Notes: generated by a model not told the origin, from the sequence alone. A stretch of DNA of 64,000 nucleotides from an uncultured Syntrophaceae bacterium (GCA_964484485.1 CAZAGD010000043.1:5660-69659); one strand, 5' to 3'. Positions 40,919 to 50,626 are shown, numbered from the stretch's first letter. Numbers and translations are program-made.

Positions 40919-42082
40919 TCATCCTATATGGCTATTAAAAATTATATCCATTCTAAAATGTTGCAGAATAGAAATAAAAGCCGGGTTCAGCAAAGGATCT
41001 GTCTTCATTCCTAACAAATGCGATATACAGGAGCAATCCGAAGAACCAAATCCAGGGATTTCCCATGAAGCAATCTTTTGGAGCTCCCCCGCGAGAGCGC
41101 ATTCAATGTCCGTAGAAGATCTGATGGGAATGGCTTTATAAAATTGGGCTTGATTTAGAAAATAATCAATATGCCAAAAAAATTTTTTGTTTTGGCGCTG
41201 GTGGCGAGCGATTCTTTGGGACAAATTTTTTTTAGCCGAGCCCACATAAAGATAATAACCTGCGGGAAAGTGCCGAGGTCCAAGCTTACCAATGAGCAAT
41301 TCTTTTTCCAAAGGCAAATAAAGTATTAAAATATAAGCGCCGCGATTTTTATTTTCCCTTTCCAAGATCGACCAAGGGATCTGGAGAAGTTCTATAGAAG
41401 AAATTTTTGAAAAATTATCCTGCAACTTGATCGCTAAAGGGAGGATAGATATTTCTTCTTGGGCTTGGAAAAGTTCATGGGCGAATTCAGGATCGGTATG
41501 ATACTCAGGAAGGAAATATTTGGCTGTGGGTGAAAAAATGAGGAAAAGAATGGCCCCTTCTTTTCCTTGCTTCGCCAACTCTCTTAATTCTTGAATGTGT
41601 TTTCTTCCGCGCCTGGTGACAGCATCTGGGAACATGGCTACATATTTTCCATAAAGGGTACAAGACTTCACTTCTAAGATGACCTCTCTTTTCCCTTTCT
41701 TTAAAAGAAAATCAAACCTGCTGTTGCCCCAGGAGTATTCTCTTTGTTGCACGCTAACCCCTTCCAGGCCGGGAATGAGATCATTTTGGATGAGAAAATC
41801 AACCAAATAGTTGGTAAGGTGGGTATTAATAAAAACAGGATACCCATCTCGTTCTGCAGCTATAGCAGTATAAGACAGCTTTCTATTTATATTTGTGGTT
41901 TTTTCAAAATAGATGGTAGCTCCGGGCCAAAGAAGTTCCCAGAGACGGCCGGGATTGGGCAAAAAGACCTCTATCTTTCTTCCCCTAAAAAGACACTGAA
42001 TAACAAAGCGGTTAATTCTGCTTAAGAATTTAGCTTTTTCCAATGGCGGAAAAAATTCAGATTTTATTTGCCGTACTAGCAA
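40919..42082 (-). CDS. sfsA: SfsA-family nuclease fused to a C-terminal DUF123 (GIY-YIG-like) domain
   Basis: RINRF, LPNPGRL.EL, SRFDF, EVKSCTL, FPDAVT.RG.KH; then GAYIL, GYYLYVGSA, RIARH, WHIDY, FGSSDC.C.SHL. Confidence 0.85.
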   Translation of the reverse strand: MLVRQIKSEFFPPLEKAKFLSRINRFVIQCLFRGRKIEVFLPNPGRLWELLWPGATIYFEKTTNINRKLSYTAIAAERDGYPVFINTHLTNYLVDFLIQNDLIPGLEGVSVQQREYSWGNSRFDFLLKKGKREVILEVKSCTLYGKYVAMFPDAVTRRGRKHIQELRELAKQGKEGAILFLIFSPTAKYFLPEYHTDPEFAHELFQAQEEISILPLAIKLQDNFSKISSIELLQIPWSILERENKNRGAYILILYLPLEKELLIGKLGPRHFPAGYYLYVGSAKKNLSQRIARHQRQNKKFFWHIDYFLNQAQFYKAIPIRSSTDIECALAGELQKIASWEIPGFGSSDCSCISHLLGMKTDPLLNPAFISILQHFRMDIIFNSHIG

Positions 42083-42220
42083 GGATGGCCCCTCTTAATT
42101 AATTTTTTGTTTAAGCCTATTTTTAATCTTAAAAGAAATGGGCGCAAAATAAAAGTATTCTCTTTAAACTTGCTTTTAGTAAGGGAATCGTAATAAGATT
42201 ATTTAAATTTAATCAAAAAT

Positions 42221-42294
42221 GCCCCCGTAGCTCAGGTGGATAGAGCAAGGGATTCCTAATCCCTGTGCCGCGTGTTCGAGTCACGCCGGGGGCA
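42221..42294 (+). tRNA. tRNA-Arg(CCT)
   Basis: GCCCCCG/CGGGGGC stem, AGGGA-TTCCTAA-TCCCT anticodon arm, GTTCGAG T-loop; CCA not encoded. Confidence 0.92.
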
Positions 42295-42345
42295 CTCGTC
42301 TCCAAGAAATAATAAAAATTTATTTAGGCCAAGAGAAAGAGAGGA

Positions 42346-43047
42346 ATGAACTTGGCTGAAAAATATCAATTGCCCAGACGAGATTTTTTTAAAATCACAG
42401 CTGGCGCTTTGGGAATTTGGATTAGTGCTGACCGTGTTTCTTCCTCCATCGCCCAAACCAAAGAAGAAACCTGGCCCAAAAAAATTAGTAAAGAGGTCCA
42501 GCGGCTACTTAAAGAAATGGAAGCTCAAAGTAGTCGGTATTGGAGCGTACCTAAGAAGGATGGACAATTTTTAAATTTTTTTATAAGGGCGATGAAGGCT
42601 AAACAAGTTTTGGAAGTAGGTACTTCCCAGGGATATTCGGCAATTTGGATGGGCTTAGCTTTAAAAGAAACAGGGGGGCACTTAACTACTATTGAAATAG
42701 GAAAGAGCCGGTATGAATTGGCCAAAAAATATGTAAACCAGGCCGGCCTCTCCACCCACATCACTCTTATCAATGGAGATGCGCACCAAGAGATCATTAA
42801 ACTAAGGGGTCCTTTTGATTTTGTTTTTCTTGATGCCGATAAAGAAGGGCAGGTAGATTATTTTCAAAAGCTCTATCCTCATAAAATTTTGCCTGGGGGA
42901 GTAATTGCCGTCCATAATGCCATCCAATACGCCAAATCCATGCAAGACTACTTAGATTTAGTCCGGCATCATCCCAATTTTGATAGCATAATCGTGAGTG
43001 CCACTCTGGAAGATGGTTTTTCCCTCAGTTATCGCTTACCCACTTAG
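42346..43047 (+). CDS. Class I SAM-dependent O-methyltransferase with twin-arginine signal peptide
   Basis: PRRDFFK Tat motif; LEVGTSQGYS, TTIE, FDFVFLDADK, HNA. Confidence 0.8.
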   Translation: MNLAEKYQLPRRDFFKITAGALGIWISADRVSSSIAQTKEETWPKKISKEVQRLLKEMEAQSSRYWSVPKKDGQFLNFFIRAMKAKQVLEVGTSQGYSAIWMGLALKETGGHLTTIEIGKSRYELAKKYVNQAGLSTHITLINGDAHQEIIKLRGPFDFVFLDADKEGQVDYFQKLYPHKILPGGVIAVHNAIQYAKSMQDYLDLVRHHPNFDSIIVSATLEDGFSLSYRLPT

Positions 43048-43172
43048 AATTATTACTCGGAGCAATTAAATATTTACAGTTATCACCCTCACCTTCCTCC
43101 ATGGTGATGGTCTTATCGACTTCCCCGAATGAGACTGGGTCGTAATTCGAAATAAGAAAGGAAATCAAATGA

Positions 43173-43197
43173 GGTAAGGGATAAAACCTTGCCCTCC
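43173..43197 (-). repeat. Family B REP-like element (degenerate)
   Basis: Minus strand GGAG-GGCAAGGT-TTTAT-CCCTTACC. Confidence 0.45.
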
Positions 43198-43230
43198 AAA
43201 TCTGGTCTATTGCCCATCTCGTAATTTCAT

Positions 43231-43277
43231 AACTCCCCCTTCTCCCCCTCTTACTTTAAGAGGGGGTGGGGGGGCGT
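43231..43277. repeat. Family D hairpin repeat
   Basis: AACTCCCCCTTCTCCCCCTCTTACTTTAAGAGGGGGTGGGGGGGCGTT. Confidence 0.55.
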
Positions 43278-43391
43278 TAAACCCTTGCGCCATGAATTAT
43301 ATTTAGCAAGCGGCAAGCTGAATCTGCATCAAGATGTCATTCATTTTATGCTCCCATTAACAATTCCCAAAAATTATTCTTTCTTCGGTTT

Positions 43392-44501
43392 TTACCTAAA
43401 AGAGGGCCAGAATTCGCGGAGAAGAAATTTAAGCTCTTTTATCATCTCTATAGTATATTTTAAAGGTCCGTTCTTAGGGGGTTTAGATGGCCAAGGCAGA
43501 GGCTCTGCTAAAGGCCAAGGGAAATTCGCCAAACCGGTCAATAAAGCAAGCCAAGCATAAGGTAAAATCTCTTTGTTATAGCCTGAACCGATCATGTCAA
43601 TAACCCTACCTTGGCAAATATTATCGGCCAGCTCCCGCACTGTTTGGCCAATCATCGAAAATCCTTTCACTGTTAAACCTAAATTAGTTAACTGATCAGA
43701 AAGATGAGGATCAGATCCGCCATTCCTTATAATAATTTGGGGCTGAAAATCAAAAACAACGGGTTTAACGATTTCGGCCAACACTAAGGCATAGCATTGG
43801 TCATCAGCTCCAGGAGGCATGGGCATATTAATGGTATAGCCTCGGCCCTCTTTTTCACCGAGTTGATGGATGAAACCAGTTCCCGGATATAGCGTCCGGG
43901 GGTCTTGATGAATATCGAGGAAAAGGACGCCGGGGTCTTCATAAAAATATTCAGCCGTCCCATTACCGGCATGAGCATCGGTATCCAAAATTAAAATTTT
44001 TTCCCACTTATAAATTTTTTGCAAATATTTGGCGGCAAAGGCGACGTCATTATATATACAAAACCCTTCGCCTCTATTTGGCTTGGCATGGTGCAGACCA
44101 CCGCCCAAGGAGACCACTTTGGTATATTGATTAGTAGCTATTAAATCACAGGCTTTTTTAGCCTGGCCCACAATCAGTCGGGCTGCCTCTTCCACCTTTC
44201 CGGGGCGGCCCACTGGGCGATTGTCTCCGGTATGGAACTGAAAGAAACGGCTATTATAATCCTGCCCCAGATTAGCCATTTTGAAATAGTAAGTGGTAAA
44301 TTCGATATATTCTTTTTGACAGATAAGCAACAGGTCTTTTTCTTCTGCCCAATCCGCTTCCAAGAATTTGTAAATTCCTTTACTGGGAAATTTTTCTCTC
44401 AAAAATTGGGGAAATATTTGGTAGCGGTCACCTCGAAAGGGATGACCAGGTCCGAAGTCGTACTCTTTTAATTCTTCGCGGTAAAGGATGGGCAAAGTCA
44501 T
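43392..44501 (-). CDS. Histone deacetylase family Zn-dependent deacylase (AcuC-like)
   Basis: FGPGHPF, GGGLHHA, GFCIYND, DTDAH, NGGSDPH..D.L, GSGY. Confidence 0.9.
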   Translation of the reverse strand: MTLPILYREELKEYDFGPGHPFRGDRYQIFPQFLREKFPSKGIYKFLEADWAEEKDLLLICQKEYIEFTTYYFKMANLGQDYNSRFFQFHTGDNRPVGRPGKVEEAARLIVGQAKKACDLIATNQYTKVVSLGGGLHHAKPNRGEGFCIYNDVAFAAKYLQKIYKWEKILILDTDAHAGNGTAEYFYEDPGVLFLDIHQDPRTLYPGTGFIHQLGEKEGRGYTINMPMPPGADDQCYALVLAEIVKPVVFDFQPQIIIRNGGSDPHLSDQLTNLGLTVKGFSMIGQTVRELADNICQGRVIDMIGSGYNKEILPYAWLALLTGLANFPWPLAEPLPWPSKPPKNGPLKYTIEMIKELKFLLREFWPSFR

Positions 44502-44517
44502 AATTAGCGTTTTCCCT

Positions 44518-45051
44518 TTAATTGTAAAAAAAGAGCTTTACGATGATAATTGCCAATATAATGCCCATGAGGTCAGCAATAACACAAACGGGAATTAAAT
44601 AGCGCGTCTTTTTAATTCCTACGGCACCCAGATAGATGGCCAAGACATAGAAAGTGGTTTCCGCACTGCCCATGATTACGGCCGCAATTCTGCTGGCCAG
44701 AGAATCTGGGCCTGTATTTTTCACAATATCTGTAAACAATCCCAGAGCAGCACTGCCCGACAACGGCTTAATAAAGGAGATAGAAATAATCTCGAAGGGT
44801 AAGTTAAAAAAGTTGCTGACTCCCCGGAAAATTTCTTGTCCTAAATTAAATGCTCCCGAGGCCTGGAAAGCTTTGACAGCAACAAAAATGGCCAACACAT
44901 AAGGGAAGATACGCAGGGTTACATTTATTCCTTCTTTGGCCCCATTAACGAAACAATCATAAACTTTTACCTTTTTAAAGAAAGCATAAGAGACTATCGA
45001 GAAGATGAAAATTGGAATAATAAGTTGAGAGATAAAATGCACAATATTCAT
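44518..45051 (-). CDS. spmB: SpmB-like membrane protein (nucleoside-recognition Gate domain)
   Basis: KVYDCFVNGAKEG, KPLSGSAALG, MGSAETTFYV..YLGAVGI. Confidence 0.85.
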   Translation of the reverse strand: MNIVHFISQLIIPIFIFSIVSYAFFKKVKVYDCFVNGAKEGINVTLRIFPYVLAIFVAVKAFQASGAFNLGQEIFRGVSNFFNLPFEIISISFIKPLSGSAALGLFTDIVKNTGPDSLASRIAAVIMGSAETTFYVLAIYLGAVGIKKTRYLIPVCVIADLMGIILAIIIVKLFFYN

Positions 45052-45623
45052 TTTAAGATCTTGCGAAATAAAAATAAGATTCCTATGGCCAATATCGCGG
45101 AAATGAAGGTAGATAAAATTGTTGGCCCTACGATAAGAGAGGCCTTAGGAGAACCGAAATCAGAAAGAATGCCTATTACCGAAAAAGGGATGAGCTGAAT
45201 ACTGGCCGTATTAATGACGATAAAAAGCATCATTTCGAAAGTTAAAGTTTCCTTATCGTTATTTAATGTTTGGAGATCTTGCATGGCCTTGATGCCTAAA
45301 GGAGTAGCCGCATTTCCTAAGCCAAAAAAATTTGCTAAAAAATTAAGTGTAATGGAAGTGATGGCGGGGTGGTTAGCAGGAATTTTCTTAAAAAGGGCAC
45401 AAATCAAAGGTTGGAAAGCGCGAGCTAAACTGTAAATAAGGCCGGATTCTTCGATTATTTTAGTTATGCCCAACCACAGAGAAATAATTCCCCCAAGAAA
45501 AAGAGAGATCTCTACGGCTGCTTTGGCCCCCTCAAAAAAAGATTTAGTTAGCTCCTCCAGGCGGCCATTTATTAAAGAAACAATTACACTGACGAAGAGC
45601 AATAAAAACCATACCGTATTCAT
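45048..45623 (-). CDS. spmA: SpmA-like membrane protein
   Basis: LWLGI.KI.EESGL, ANFFGLGNAATPLGIKAMQ.L, INTASIQLIP. Confidence 0.85.
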   Translation of the reverse strand: MNTVWFLLLFVSVIVSLINGRLEELTKSFFEGAKAAVEISLFLGGIISLWLGITKIIEESGLIYSLARAFQPLICALFKKIPANHPAITSITLNFLANFFGLGNAATPLGIKAMQDLQTLNNDKETLTFEMMLFIVINTASIQLIPFSVIGILSDFGSPKASLIVGPTILSTFISAILAIGILFLFRKILK

Positions 45624-46459
45624 AAAATTTTAAGCGTTTTGGTATAAGTATTTAATTCCACCTTAGCGCCAATGGGTAGAGTAATCTTATTTGGTCCATG
45701 ACCGATATAAGGGCAATAGACTAAGGGAAAATCTATTTTAATCTGTTCCTGCAAGATATTAAAGACATCTTTATTTTTCAGCCCCCGAAAATCTCCTAAA
45801 ATAACGCCTTGAACTTTAGCAAATTTTTGAGCCAGAATCCATTGAGAAAGCAGCCTGTCTACTTCATATAGCTTTTGATCTACCTCTTCTAAGAATAAAA
45901 TTGTCCCGGCAGTTTTTATCTCCCATTTGGTGCCCAGCAAAGCTGATAAAGTAATTAGATTGCCGCCTTTAAGAACTCCGCGGGCTATTCCAGCCCGGTA
46001 AATGCCTAAAGGAGCACCGGCAAATAAATTCTTTTGCGGAAATCCCTGACAAGCATTGAGGAAGGAGCGGGTGGTAAAAGGAGTGACGGGATGGAAATTG
46101 ATGATCATCGGCGAATGCCAAGTGATTAGTCCTGTTTTTTCATAGATAACATTCAAGAGAGCGCTAAGGTCGCTGAAGCCGGCAAAAATCTTGGGGTGCT
46201 TTTTAAGAAGAGTAAAATTGAGCTGGGGGAGGAGTTTCATACAGCCATAACCTCCCCTTTGGGCCATGATTATTTCTACTTTTTTATTCTTCACCGCCGC
46301 ATGTATTTGCTTAATCTTTTGCTTAAGGGGAGGCATTTTAGTCAAGAACTTTTTATTCTGTACTTTAAAACCCAAGTCCTCTAAGGTCTTTATGCTCGCC
46401 TTAAATTCTCTTTCTTTTTTCATCAACCAACTGGGAGTGATGATAGAAATTATGGGCAA
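45620..46459 (-). CDS. LD-carboxypeptidase (peptidase S66)
   Basis: RGGYG nucleophile motif, GFSD.SAL, GGNL, LFLEE, GHG. Confidence 0.88.
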   Translation of the reverse strand: MPIISIITPSWLMKKEREFKASIKTLEDLGFKVQNKKFLTKMPPLKQKIKQIHAAVKNKKVEIIMAQRGGYGCMKLLPQLNFTLLKKHPKIFAGFSDLSALLNVIYEKTGLITWHSPMIINFHPVTPFTTRSFLNACQGFPQKNLFAGAPLGIYRAGIARGVLKGGNLITLSALLGTKWEIKTAGTILFLEEVDQKLYEVDRLLSQWILAQKFAKVQGVILGDFRGLKNKDVFNILQEQIKIDFPLVYCPYIGHGPNKITLPIGAKVELNTYTKTLKIL

Positions 46460-46474
46460 ATTCGTTCCTTTCTA

Positions 46475-47551
46475 TTATAGTATTTCCAAAGGCAGCAGCA
46501 TTTCTTCCGTATAACCAAATTCACTAAGGAAACGTTGCGTAGCTTCCATATTTGGCTTCCATCCCATCTTTTCGCCGCGAAATCGAGTGGCTAAAACATA
46601 GTCGAAGATAGGGGAAAAAACTCCCATAGCCAGAAAATTTGGTTGACTACGGGGGTACCCTCCTGGCCCTTTTTCACTAGCCCAAAGGGCATCTAAAAGA
46701 CAAAGTTGCTGGCGGGGGTAAACTACTTTTCCAGTCTGCAGATCCATGGGACCCAAAATCTCTGGGGTTTTATTAATGGCCAACAAATAATCGAGGGCGC
46801 CTTCCCGATGACCGGGAGCCGGATCAAAGGTACCAAAGTGATTTTTCATAGTCATGGTAAAGCCTCCAAAAGTCTGGCTATGTCCTTTACACATGGCTAT
46901 ATTGATGAGAATATCCACATATCCGTCCACCAAAGGTTTGAGGCATTTTGCTTGTCCACGAGATTGCCGCCAGGGTTCGGGAACTTTAGTTAAAGCAGTC
47001 ACTCCTCCCCATTCATTTTCAATTTTGACGCCTGCGGGCAGGTCGGCAAAAGGTGTATTTTGGGCCATAGAGCCACCATGAATTCCATCGTAAATGTGAA
47101 TGTTCTCAGGATTTATTCGGCAGATCTTGACCAGGACGTGGCAAATTTTAGACATCACCGCGCTGCGGGTATGTTGGAGAGCAATGTTATTAGTTTTAAT
47201 GGCCACGACTGTTTCCGACCAGGATTTACGCGGTGGTTTTATGAAAATGGTTGACCAAGCTTTCTCAGGATTAGACAATTTAGTTAGAGCGCAAGCTAAT
47301 TTATCTAAGTTTTCCCAAACTACTTCTTTAACTACTAATTTTTCCTGCCAAGACCAAGAAGAAATCGGCTGCAAGTCTCTGGTCATGCGTGAGTCAATAA
47401 TGCCCACCACGCGCCGATGGTCAATATGTGGGTGAACCTGGGTACCTTTGGCCCAGTGGGCTTTAATCTCGCGGCCGTAAAGAAAAGGGGCAACAGCCGC
47501 GGAGGTAGCGATTATTGATTTTTTAAGAAAGTTGCGACGGGATATAGACAT
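46475..47551 (-). CDS. DUF362-like protein with Tat signal
   Basis: SRRNFLKK; IKTN; CKGH..GGFTMTMKNHFG; start at ATG after SD GAGGAGG. Confidence 0.65.
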   Translation of the reverse strand: MSISRRNFLKKSIIATSAAVAPFLYGREIKAHWAKGTQVHPHIDHRRVVGIIDSRMTRDLQPISSWSWQEKLVVKEVVWENLDKLACALTKLSNPEKAWSTIFIKPPRKSWSETVVAIKTNNIALQHTRSAVMSKICHVLVKICRINPENIHIYDGIHGGSMAQNTPFADLPAGVKIENEWGGVTALTKVPEPWRQSRGQAKCLKPLVDGYVDILINIAMCKGHSQTFGGFTMTMKNHFGTFDPAPGHREGALDYLLAINKTPEILGPMDLQTGKVVYPRQQLCLLDALWASEKGPGGYPRSQPNFLAMGVFSPIFDYVLATRFRGEKMGWKPNMEATQRFLSEFGYTEEMLLPLEIL

Positions 47552-47649
47552 AAAATTTTTCACCTCCTCATGATTTATTTTGACCCACTTTGGAGGTTTT
47601 CAGCAAGTTTTATTTTGTTATAATAAAAAATAAAAATAGGGGAGGGAAT

Positions 47650-48897
47650 ATGAATTTAAAAAATTTGCGGGTGAATGAGCATCGGCTACGTACATCCTTG
47701 GAAAAAATGGCGGAGATTGGCCAAACCCCCAAAGGGGGTGTACACCGCTTGGCCCTCTCGGATGAAGACCGCGAAGCCCGAAATTTGTTTGTCAATTGGC
47801 TCAAAGAATTGGGCTTAGAAATTATTATTGATGAGTTGGGAAATATATTTGGTCGCCGGCGCGGCGAACAAGACCATTTTCCTGCCGTGCTTATGGGGTC
47901 TCATTTAGACACTCAGCCGCAAGGGGGGAGGTTTGACGGAATCTTAGGAGTTTTAGGAGCTTTGGAAGTCATGCGTACCCTTCATGAAAACAAGATTAAT
48001 ACAGAGCGGCCTTTGGTCATCGTTGATTGGACCAATGAAGAAGGATCACGATTTTCCCCAGCCATGATGGGCTCGGGAGTTTGGACGGGAAAGTTGAACC
48101 GAGATTGGGTTTACAATAGAACGGATATAAAAGGAAAGAGCGTAGGGGAAGAGCTGGTCAGGATAGGTTATCGCGGTGAAAAAGAAGCTAAGAGTTTTCC
48201 GGTGCACGCTTATTTTGAATTGCACATAGAACAGGGACCCATTTTGGATAAAGAAGGCATCAAGATTGGAGTGCCGCGGGGGATCGTGGGCATAGTTTGG
48301 GCGGACCTTTTCGTGGAAGGGAGATCAAACCAAGTAGGGCCTACGCCCATGGAGGGAAGGAATGATGCCCTTTGTGCCGCGGCCGAAATGATTTTACAGG
48401 TGGAAAAATTGCCCCGAGATATGGGTGGAAATATGGTAGCTACCGTAGGAGAAATCCATAATTTACCTAATTCGCGCAATATTATTCCCGGGAAAGTGCG
48501 CTTTACAGTAGATATTCGTTCTTGGGATGATGAATTACTTAGGCGCGGAAAAGAGTATCTGCAGACCCAAGTCCAAAAAATTGCGGAGCGGCGGGGATGC
48601 GCTTTCCGCTGGGAAGATATCTGGATGATAAACCATACCCCGTTTGCGGAAGAATTGATCCAACTGGTAGAAAAGACGGCCACAGAACTGGGTTATTCTA
48701 CGAGAGAGATGGTCAGCGGCGCAGGACATGACGCCAGTTATTTAAGCCAAATAGCCCCGACCGCCATGATTTTTGTGCCCAGTATTGGGGGGCGGAGTCA
48801 TGTAGAAGTGGAAGAAACCAAGTGGGCTGACTGTGCAGCCGGAGCGAATGTCCTCTTGCATTGTGTCTTGCAAGCAGCAGCCGGAAGAGCAGAATGA
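47650..48897 (+). CDS. M20 Zn-dependent hydrolase (N-carbamoyl-amino acid / allantoate amidohydrolase family)
   Basis: GSHLDT, GG.FDG..GV, TNEEG.RF, ELHIEQGP, SGAGHDA, SH...E; start MNLKN after SD GGGGAGG. Confidence 0.88.
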   Translation: MNLKNLRVNEHRLRTSLEKMAEIGQTPKGGVHRLALSDEDREARNLFVNWLKELGLEIIIDELGNIFGRRRGEQDHFPAVLMGSHLDTQPQGGRFDGILGVLGALEVMRTLHENKINTERPLVIVDWTNEEGSRFSPAMMGSGVWTGKLNRDWVYNRTDIKGKSVGEELVRIGYRGEKEAKSFPVHAYFELHIEQGPILDKEGIKIGVPRGIVGIVWADLFVEGRSNQVGPTPMEGRNDALCAAAEMILQVEKLPRDMGGNMVATVGEIHNLPNSRNIIPGKVRFTVDIRSWDDELLRRGKEYLQTQVQKIAERRGCAFRWEDIWMINHTPFAEELIQLVEKTATELGYSTREMVSGAGHDASYLSQIAPTAMIFVPSIGGRSHVEVEETKWADCAAGANVLLHCVLQAAAGRAE

Positions 48898-48930
48898 ATT
48901 TCTGTTTTAAAAATTTTAAGAACAACACCC

Positions 48931-49222
48931 TTGACCGTCGATCAGTTTTTAAATTCCACGTTAATTCAGGCGGGAGGGAGAGAGACTCATTAAAATGAGG
49001 CACATATTCTTTCATAGGTACAGGCGGGGAAATAGACATTTATTTTAAAAGAAGGAAGCTATTATTTAAGTTTATCTGGCAGGACAAGTATGTCCCCGCC
49101 GTTCTTGGCGGAGAGAAGGTGAGTAAGAGAGGAATGGTCATTTCCCAGCCGATTTTAATTTCGCCTCTCCCCTCCCGCCTGTTTCCTGCTGGTGAGAATC
49201 ATTAAAACTGTTAGACGGTCAG
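48931..49222 (-). mobile_element. MITE family A, copy 6 (292 bp, full length)
   Basis: TTGACCGTCGATCAG...CTGTTAGACGGTCAG; flanks ACAACACCC / ATAACACCC; colinear with 24998-25291. Confidence 0.88.
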
Positions 49223-49255
49223 ATAACACCCCTAGTGATTCTCGAATTGCTTAAT

Positions 49256-49285
49256 TTGACATACCAATAATCATAGTGCTAACTT
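49256..49285 (+). promoter_or_regulatory. sigma70 promoter of miaB (possibly leaderless transcript)
   Basis: TTGACA-N18-TAACTT with extended TG; ATG starts 7 nt after the -10 hexamer; no SD. Confidence 0.5.
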
Positions 49286-49291
49286 TTAATT

Positions 49292-50626
49292 ATGCTGCCG
49301 AAAAAATTATTCCTAAAAACTTTTGGCTGCCAGATGAATGTTTATGATTCGCAAAGGATTCTGCAATTGCTCGCCCGGGAGAATTATATACTTGTTAATA
49401 ATCCGCGCGAGGCCGATTTAATTTTCTTGAATACCTGCACGGTGCGAGAAAAGCCAGCCCAAAAGGTGTATAGTATCCTGGGTCGTCTGCGGCCTTTAAA
49501 GAAAAAAAATCCGAATTTAATCATTGGAGTAGGGGGGTGCTTGGCGCAACAAGAAGGAGAAAATTTGCTGGCCAGGTTTGCCCAAGTGGATTTTGTTTTA
49601 GGGACCAAAGAATTTAACCGCCTCTTGGAAATTTTAAACATAATTGAGAAATCAAGGACGCGCCTGACGGCCACTGAGCTTAACGGCAGAATAGATCCGT
49701 ATGCCGAACTTCCTTTGGTGGGCGAACCAAATTCTGGGGCGACGGCCTTTGTGTCGATCATGCAGGGGTGCGATAATTTCTGCTCTTTCTGCATTGTCCC
49801 TTTGGTGCGAGGGCGAGAGGTTTCCCGGCCCAGCCGGGATATTTTAAAGGAAATTTCTTTATTAGCCCAAATAGGAGTTAAAGAAGTTACTTTATTAGGG
49901 CAAAATGTTAATTCTTATGGGAAAACCTCTCCTGGAGAATTAGATTTTGCAGGATTGCTTAGGGCAATTCAAGAAATCCCGGGAATAGAAAGAATTCGTT
50001 TCACTACTTCTCATCCCCGTGATCTTTCCGAGTCGCTCATCGAGTGCTTTGGTCAACTGTCCAAACTTTGTGAGCATATCCATTTGCCCTTACAATCTGG
50101 ATCTGACCGCATCCTTAAGCTAATGAACCGCGGCTATACCTTCCAGGAATACTTGCAGAAGGTTAAGAGGCTGCGCCAAGTCTGTCCCGATATAAGTATT
50201 ACCACCGACATGATCGTAGGTTTTCCCGGGGAAAAAGAAGAAGATTTTCAGGCCAGCTTAGAGGCGCTGGGTCTAATCGAGTTTGATGAGATGTTCTCTT
50301 TCAAATATGCCGATCGACCGGGGACAAAGGCCTCTTCTTTAGGTGCAAAGGTTCCCGAAGAAATTGGGGAGAGACGCTTAAGAGAATTGCAAACTTATCA
50401 AAAAAAGATTACGCAGCAAAAAAATAAAGCCTATGAAGGGAAAACCGTCCAAGTTTTAGTGGAGGGGAAGAGCAAAAATTGCCCGGAAGAAAGCACAGGA
50501 AGGACCCGGACAAATCGCATCGTTAATTTCCCAGGTATTTTTGCCCCAGGAAGGTTAGTGAATGTGAAAATAGTCCAGGCTTACGCCCACAGCTTGCGGG
50601 GAGAAGTCCAAGATCACTCCCTTTAA
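49292..50626 (+). CDS. miaB: tRNA-2-methylthio-N6-dimethylallyladenosine synthase
   Basis: TFGCQMNVYDS, NTCTVRE, QGCDNFCSFCIVP, TTSHP, C-terminal TRAM (GRTRTN). Confidence 0.96.
   Translation: MLPKKLFLKTFGCQMNVYDSQRILQLLARENYILVNNPREADLIFLNTCTVREKPAQKVYSILGRLRPLKKKNPNLIIGVGGCLAQQEGENLLARFAQVDFVLGTKEFNRLLEILNIIEKSRTRLTATELNGRIDPYAELPLVGEPNSGATAFVSIMQGCDNFCSFCIVPLVRGREVSRPSRDILKEISLLAQIGVKEVTLLGQNVNSYGKTSPGELDFAGLLRAIQEIPGIERIRFTTSHPRDLSESLIECFGQLSKLCEHIHLPLQSGSDRILKLMNRGYTFQEYLQKVKRLRQVCPDISITTDMIVGFPGEKEEDFQASLEALGLIEFDEMFSFKYADRPGTKASSLGAKVPEEIGERRLRELQTYQKKITQQKNKAYEGKTVQVLVEGKSKNCPEESTGRTRTNRIVNFPGIFAPGRLVNVKIVQAYAHSLRGEVQDHSL

Follow-up and report, generated by a model that had tools for sequence, protein, structure and literature searches.

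The stretch of DNA considered here (64,000 nucleotides from an uncultured Syntrophaceae bacterium, GCA_964484485.1 CAZAGD010000043.1:5660-69659, hereafter the window) carries on its minus strand a compact three-gene cassette encoding a serine peptidase of family S66 followed by the membrane proteins SpmA and SpmB. We tentatively propose, as a reading with a little under an even chance of being right, that SpmA and SpmB together (SpmAB) import a cell-wall peptide ending in D-alanine (D-Ala) and that the co-translated cytoplasmic S66 enzyme trims this D-Ala. The proposal builds on the anatomy of the cassette, its conservation among relatives, its independent recurrence with stem-peptide peptidases in distant lineages, the cytoplasmic location of the S66 enzyme and the transporter fold of SpmAB.

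The S66 gene (positions 45620-46459 of the window, minus strand) has a TTG start with the ribosome-binding site AAAGGA and encodes a protein of 279 amino acids (aa). Its stop overlaps the start of spmA (45048-45623, minus strand) by the four bases ATGA, and the stop of spmA overlaps the start of spmB (44518-45051, minus strand) in the same way. The two membrane proteins, putatively the N-terminal (SpmA) and C-terminal (SpmB) halves of one transporter, each contain a single Gate domain (PF07670, above cut-off). The cassette is part of a run of five closely packed minus-strand open reading frames (ORFs; 43392-47551), identified by ORF calls and Pfam searches as DUF362, S66, spmA, spmB and an HDAC-family deacetylase; an earlier note on this DNA had described this tight run with its two 4-bp overlaps and the Gate domains of SpmA and SpmB, and every one of these features was recovered at its coordinates. 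The host genome (3.63 Mb, 97.7% complete) encodes BamA (438 bits, above the cut-off in a profile search) and its search gave no Spo0A, receiver-domain matches all lying below cut-off; because of this combination the host can be considered a diderm non-sporulator, as the earlier note had also stated, and the Spm names of the window proteins denote homology only and not a role in endospore maturation.

The class to which the window belongs in GTDB consists of one family with 17 genomes. All 11 SpmA-positive genomes of this class, which represent 7 genera, encode S66, spmA and spmB in the same order, as overlapping or abutting genes, and the same unit is found in 6/6 metagenome loci (L146-L151), the close relatives returned by a metagenome scan with the S66 sequence. 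The unit, with S66 directly upstream of spmA, is also present in G196, a genome from another family of the phylum (f83), where S66 is 58% identical to that of the window; overall, the S66 orthologues located directly upstream of spmA in relatives show 57-95% identity. Outside the genus of the window the genes flanking the cassette differ entirely from lineage to lineage, and only S66-spmA-spmB is the conserved unit. Within the phylum, the name of which (Thermodesulfobacteriota) was judged solely from the labels of related loci, the S66-spmA link may stem from one gain followed by several losses or from transfer, and the SpmA tree fits either. In this tree, the SpmA of the betaproteobacterium Formivibrio citricus (L016) nests in the Thermodesulfobacteriota clade as the sister of that of G196 (L124, support 100/99), a grouping that suggests that spmAB was transferred horizontally while S66 was left behind.

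We then compared 80 spmA loci from many phyla, with neighbouring genes described by their Pfam families. Twenty-four are Bacillales loci with the arrangement dacB-spmA-spmB, which the earlier note had mentioned for Bacillus and in which DacB is of family S11, and an S66 gene is present at 3 of the 80 loci (L057, L018 and L032), each of which stands for an arrangement that is conserved in its own lineage. The first, L057, from a bacterium with type IX secretion genes, encodes in order an NlpC/P60 protein, an M23 peptidase, a C26 amidotransferase-like protein, S66, SpmA, SpmB, an M15 D-Ala-D-Ala dipeptidase, a second S66 and an amino-acid permease. SpmA is encoded by 20 of the 41 genomes of the corresponding order (that of the reference genome G404), with S66 directly upstream in 16 of these 20, and 11 of the 16 S66-linked loci read S13-S66-spmA-spmB, S13 being a DD-carboxypeptidase family. 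The second, L018, from Tissierella pigra, encodes a beta-lactamase-like protein, a YkfC-like NlpC/P60-SH3 protein, SpmA, SpmB and S66. Among Tissierellales, SpmA identity is 63% or more at 10 loci, of which 8 have S66 right after spmB, some of them with a YkfC-like NlpC/P60-SH3 gene in front; none of 20 more distant spmA copies (41-52% identity) is followed by S66 in this way. Several Tissierellales genomes (G405, G474, G486, G480, G478 and G460) have two spmAB copies, one followed by S66 and the other not, which suggests a vegetative paralogue next to the sporulation copy. The third, L032, has a divergent S66 followed by spmA, spmB and S13, and this arrangement is found in both SpmA-positive genomes of its order (that of G406). 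In the reference genomes G404, G405 and G406, every S66 copy is located at the spmAB locus.

In the S66 tree, the spmAB-linked enzymes group by host lineage, in deep clades that are separate from one another; taken with the three different gene orders, this points to repeated and independent recruitment of S66 to spmAB, and we count at least four recruitments of a cytoplasmic S66 beside spmA or spmB. The earlier note had declared beforehand that its interpretation would fall if the linkage of spmAB with S66 did not recur and no muropeptide transport was seen; the linkage does recur, in the class of the window, in the order of G404, in Tissierellales and in the order of G406. An overlapping tricistron that 7 genera have kept and that turns up again in unrelated lineages is not a chance arrangement. 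Two side observations concern the neighbours of these cassettes. In Tissierella pigra, the protein encoded two genes upstream of spmA (L018:8108-8890) is class-A beta-lactamase-like (PF13354, 215 bits) and lacks a signal peptide. In two unrelated lineages, the cassette is bordered by a glutamine-amidotransferase-like hydrolase, of class II (GATase_4) in G196 (L137:7455-8225) and of class I/C26 at L057 (8394-9062); the relatives of both GATase_4 and C26 include gamma-glutamyl hydrolases, and the stem peptide contains a gamma-D-Glu bond.

The S66 protein of the window has the complete two-domain architecture of its family (PF02016 and PF17676 at 100.9 and 98.8 bits, over the cut-offs; E 7e-29 and 4e-28). 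The motifs that hold its Ser (GFSD), Glu (FLEE) and His (GHG) line up with their counterparts in the solved S66 enzymes Lmo1638, MccF and BA_5613, and its catalytic Ser column is the position mutated from Ser to Ala in 4inj. The protein has no signal peptide and begins directly with the catalytic domain. In all lineages compared, the S66 adjoining spmA or spmB is likewise without signal peptide, as are the NlpC/P60-SH3 and beta-lactamase-like proteins beside Tissierella spmAB, whereas signal peptides are present in the accompanying S13, M15, M23 and DacB proteins and in the second S66 of L057. The cassette-linked S66 is thus cytoplasmic, and its substrate must reach the cytoplasm. It is the only S66 encoded by the host according to a genome-wide family search. 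At 279 aa it is shorter than LdcA (about 305-320 aa), and, being only 31-35% identical to the unlinked, LdcA-type S66 proteins of other SpmA-positive genomes in the phylum, it belongs to a short S66 subfamily proper to the cassette, for which LD-carboxypeptidase activity is predicted.

SpmA and SpmB form an adjacent pair of about 175-195 aa each and both fall within the SpmA/SpmB family. The window SpmA is 43-45% identical to the SpmA proteins of Bacillus loci, homologues of it in databases are annotated at source as "spore maturation protein A", and the window SpmB also matches the YjiG model NF007811 weakly. Many homologues are single SpmA-SpmB fusion proteins of 400-460 aa. One of these, P0129, is 46% identical to the window SpmA over its residues 2-187 and 44% identical to the window SpmB over its residues 241-414, and its structure was modelled with a pLDDT of 90.8 and a pTM of 0.87. 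A sequence search of solved structures gave no match of SpmAB to any solved chain, and Foldseek, run with the P0129 model, returned weak matches only (E 1.5e-3 and worse), every one of them to a transporter. An exhaustive structural comparison, for which the tool itself advises caution with helical proteins, placed concentrative nucleoside transporters first (Z 14.7 and 13.5), followed by ArsB, TRAP-QM, Pho90, DASS and AbgT (Z 9-12.7), after which scores drop to Z 6; in total, 13 transporter chains match at Z 9-14.7 over 270-330 aligned residues with a sequence identity of just 9-14%. Because the 13 top matches belong to one transporter class and are set apart by a clear score gap, and because Pfam assigns a Gate domain in common with concentrative nucleoside transporters (and with FeoB), it is reasonable to read SpmAB, from this model, as an elevator-type secondary transporter split in two polypeptides.

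The host genome contains only two other Gate-domain ORFs, one of 682 aa on contig C129, which we take to be FeoB, and one of 317 aa with two Gate domains on contig C71. We also looked at 60 long SpmA homologues, which contain Gate domains only, except for one RecA and one Pab87_oct fusion, and ten SpmA homologues with N-terminal extensions revealed no extra domain. The RecA-bearing homologue is probably a gene-calling artefact; Pab87_oct is the domain through which an archaeal peptidase active on peptides with D-amino acids forms octamers.

In the mechanism that we propose, the three-gene operon S66-spmA-spmB would be the functional unit, and SpmA and SpmB would together form one inner-membrane elevator-type secondary transporter carrying a small peptidoglycan-derived peptide with a D-Ala end into the cytoplasm. 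The likeliest substrate would be the free stem tetrapeptide L-Ala-gamma-D-Glu-mDAP-D-Ala (mDAP, meso-diaminopimelic acid) or a shorter fragment, from which the cytoplasmic S66 serine peptidase would take off the terminal D-Ala. The earlier note had already suggested that SpmAB might be a muropeptide or peptide importer, and this appears to be the best available reading of the pair: the recurrent S66 linkage, the cytoplasmic S66 and the transporter fold all speak for it, and its substrate and direction are the conjectural part.

The host genome also allows the place of such a cassette in peptidoglycan recycling to be considered. It encodes a full-length AmpG-family permease (TIGR00901, 294.6 bits, below the 350 cut-off) directly followed by a GH3 NagZ-like gene (an adjacent pair at L102:465-2839, contig C75), together with AnmK, eight SBP_bac_5 binding proteins of the Opp/Dpp type and two NlpC/P60 proteins. 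Given AmpG-NagZ, AnmK and these binding proteins, the cassette is an addition to the AmpG route and not a replacement for it, and the description of the system as AmpG-independent in the earlier note, which had named the presence or absence of ampG/opp as a check, is not supported. In this genome, 97.7% complete, Amidase_2 (AmpD) was not found, and neither was Mpl, the best TIGR01081 match reaching 204 bits against a cut-off of 388.7; this match is one of three in a row on contig C59, which we read as the Mur ligases encoded in the division and cell-wall cluster. In view of the completeness of the genome, Mpl is likely, if not proven, to be absent. Re-ligation of the tripeptide is consequently unlikely in this host, and the word recycling, in the strict sense in which the earlier note used it, is doubtful. 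The cassette would work beside the AmpG-NagZ-AnmK route and, Mpl being missing, its trimmed product would probably be degraded or scavenged and not re-ligated.

Several points weigh against the import and trimming of a D-Ala-ended peptide. What SpmAB carries, in which direction, and what the enzyme cleaves are predictions, and the window S66 scores 122.2 bits against the LdcA equivalog model NF008424, the cut-off of which is 378. The transporters that SpmAB matches best in structure have small molecules as their known substrates (nucleosides, di- and tricarboxylates, sialic acid), with no peptide among them. The host is already equipped with AmpG and eight Opp/Dpp-type binding proteins. Neither the long SpmA homologues nor a search for longer S66 proteins yielded an S66-Gate fusion, although the empty result of the S66 search is weak evidence. 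Most diderm spmA loci have heterogeneous neighbours, with 144 Pfam families among 93 adjoining genes. In a phylum sample of 401 genomes, SpmA is found in 90 and S66 in 231, the two being adjacent in only two families. Genus g4 keeps an S66 orthologue (60% identity) without any spmAB, and four SpmA-positive genomes have no S66 match (explicitly so for G035, as deduced from the listing for G315, G289 and G172), so that neither partner needs the other.

A first alternative would make SpmAB the carrier of a product or small effector such as D-Ala or D-Ala-D-Ala, or the exporter of a wall-maturation factor, the operon then tuning stem-peptide length and D-Ala flux. The families S11, S13, S66 and M15 are all found beside spmAB and share D-Ala as a product; the small-molecule substrates just mentioned for the closest folds also suit this idea, as do the Bacillus partner DacB, which has a signal peptide and acts outside the membrane, and the wall or core phenotype of spm mutants in the literature. 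However, the S66 beside spmA is always cytoplasmic, so that D-Ala would be freed inside the cell and then exported without obvious use, and the cytoplasmic YkfC-like NlpC/P60 protein beside Tissierella spmAB needs a free peptide inside the cell. We regard this alternative as unlikely.

An explanation by co-expression without a common substrate, in which SpmAB would transport solutes or ions in general (acting for example in turgor or hydration, to judge from the spore phenotype) and be co-regulated with wall-remodelling enzymes, seems to us unlikely to about the same degree. It would account for the heterogeneous neighbours of spmAB in most phyla, for the occurrence of S66 and SpmAB each without the other, and for the Bacillus phenotype, which is described in the literature as one of core hydration with no structural defect of the cortex; it does not account well for the conserved translational coupling, nor for the at least four independent recruitments of a cytoplasmic S66 next to spmA or spmB.

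It is improbable that the short S66 is an MccF-like amidase detoxifying aminoacyl-nucleoside antibiotics, with SpmAB handling the nucleoside part, so that the cassette would serve immunity or salvage and have nothing to do with the wall. MccF, the S66 protein of microcin C7 immunity, shares the family and the catalytic triad with the window enzyme, and the closest solved structures by sequence are MccF-like (Lmo1638, E 7e-27; BA_5613; MccF of E. coli, E 4e-24), by a small margin over LdcA enzymes; moreover, a concentrative nucleoside transporter is the best fold match of SpmAB, and Gate is a nucleoside-recognition domain. However, the differences in E-value are small, and the window S66 has about 17 residues between its two aligned blocks where MccF has about 43, its inter-domain loop being about 25 residues longer. 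This inter-block loop recognises the nucleotide in MccF. In addition, every independent lineage has cell-wall peptidases, and not nucleotide enzymes, as neighbours of the cassette.

The two outer genes of the five-gene run lie 15-16 nt from the cassette on either side. The DUF362 gene (46475-47551, minus strand; PF04015 at 27.3 bits, just above the cut-off of 24) has the ribosome-binding site GAGGAGG ahead of its ATG at 47551, and its product begins with a twin-arginine-like motif (SRRNFLK) followed by a hydrophobic stretch, a Tat-like signal. The HDAC gene (43392-44501, minus strand) encodes a zinc deacylase of class I/II type with a full Hist_deacetyl domain (PF00850, 244 bits, E 2.5e-72); it belongs to the HDAC/acetylpolyamine amidohydrolase family, and the HH dyad, the D-x-H motif, the later D and the Tyr can be recognised in its translation (GGGLHHAKP, DTDAHAG, GGSDPH, GSGY). 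Among solved structures, HDAC6 and bacterial HDAH are closest to it, then AcuC-like enzymes and xenobiotic amide hydrolases; these are lysine, polyamine and small-amide deacylases, none is annotated as a sugar deacetylase, and the earlier suggestion that the enzyme de-N-acetylates a sugar finds no counterpart among them. Together with a divergent M20 gene, DUF362 and HDAC accompany the cassette only within the genus (in G075 and in the metagenome loci L146-L149, 80-95% S66 identity), and DUF362 and HDAC do not lie beside it in six other genera of the class, in G196 or at L150/L151. As this synteny is limited to the genus, we rejected both as members of the cassette. The idea put forward in the earlier note, that all five genes form an AmpG-independent recycling module in which HDAC would de-N-acetylate a sugar, is therefore very improbable: the tight packing and common orientation of the genes hold within the genus, down to 80% S66 identity, and one other family has an HDAC-family ORF, though not an orthologous one, right after spmB, yet the flanks change beyond the genus, an AmpG route is present in the host and the closest HDAC relatives act on other substrates. 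That HDAC-family ORF, in G172 (family f54, no S66), encodes 262 aa directly downstream of spmB (L136:7914-8702; PF00850, 130 bits) and is 23% identical to the window protein; the adjacency is too thin to interpret.

Further out, the M20 gene of the window (47590-48897, plus strand), divergent from DUF362, encodes an amidase of the allantoate amidohydrolase/N-carbamoyl-amino-acid hydrolase subfamily (543 bits, above cut-off). On the other side, a tRNA gene (42221-42294, plus strand; Rfam, 63.5 bits) lies about 1.1 kb downstream of HDAC, between an O-methyltransferase gene and an ORF of 387 aa (40919-42082, minus strand) in which SfsA N-terminal OB and nuclease-like domains are fused to a C-terminal DUF123. 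An Rfam scan of positions 42000-49500 found no riboswitch, returning just this one tRNA and a sub-threshold CRISPR-repeat match within the HDAC gene, and a promoter and terminator scan gave signals at the level of shuffled sequence, which were not used.

Among described systems, the closest is dacB-spmA-spmB of Bacillus subtilis, and the closest functional analogies are the LdcA pathway of E. coli and the ykf/dpp murein-peptide cluster of B. subtilis. Like the window, the dacB operon has a split SpmA/SpmB pair directly downstream of a stem-peptide carboxypeptidase; that operon is however specific to sporulation and its partner is a DD-carboxypeptidase of family S11 that is exported, whereas the partner in the window is a cytoplasmic S66 in a diderm without Spo0A. 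With the recycling pathway of E. coli and Pseudomonas (AmpG, NagZ, AmpD, LdcA, Mpl, MppA-Opp), the host shares a cytoplasmic S66 with an intact triad and the AmpG-like, NagZ-like and AnmK genes, but the LdcA of that pathway is not known to be operon-linked to a transporter, and neither Mpl nor Amidase_2 was found in the host. The ykfABCD/dpp genes of B. subtilis encode a cytoplasmic S66 (YkfA), an NlpC/P60-SH3 gamma-D-Glu-DAP peptidase (YkfC) and a peptide importer. The Tissierella spmAB locus has the same two enzyme types; the ykf/dpp importer is an ABC system, and in the window and in Tissierella the SpmAB pair takes its place. The yjiH-yjiG-iadA genes of E. coli likewise join a split Gate pair with a 4-bp overlap to a gene for a cytoplasmic peptidase, the isoaspartyl dipeptidase IadA, but involve another Gate subfamily and another peptidase family; according to a preprint, YjiH groups with SpoVV/YlbJ. 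Finally, concentrative nucleoside transporters, DASS, TRAP-QM, ArsB and AbgT have their fold in common with the SpmAB model, from which they differ by the low identity noted above and by the split of SpmAB into two chains.

Nearly all endospore formers have SpmA and SpmB, which are also conserved across many diderm phyla, but their role has been unexplained since 1995; papers from 2022 and 2026 still call it unknown. In the searchable literature, which excludes subscription literature, we found no paper linking spmA with ldcA, S66 or LD-carboxypeptidase. The wiring to a cytoplasmic S66, the DD-carboxypeptidase, NlpC/P60 and M15 neighbours, the predicted elevator fold and the existence of a self-contained cassette in non-sporulators lead to a testable hypothesis for the cargo of these proteins, the new element of which is the salvage of peptidoglycan peptides by a transporter family that had not previously been implicated. 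If this is true, SpmAB would be a third class of cell-wall-peptide transporter beside AmpG (of the MFS type) and MppA-Opp (of the ABC type), and the finding would bear on beta-lactamase induction, on the release of immune-active muropeptides and on nutrient scavenging in anaerobes. It is possible, though rather doubtful, that the SpmAB proteins in general, those that act in the sporulation of Bacillus and Clostridia among them, are elevator-type transporters for D-Ala-ended stem peptides or their fragments, in which case the core-dehydration phenotype of the spore would reflect a failure to clear or salvage the cortex peptides released by DacB, and the classic 30-year-old sporulation phenotype of spmA and spmB would be explained.

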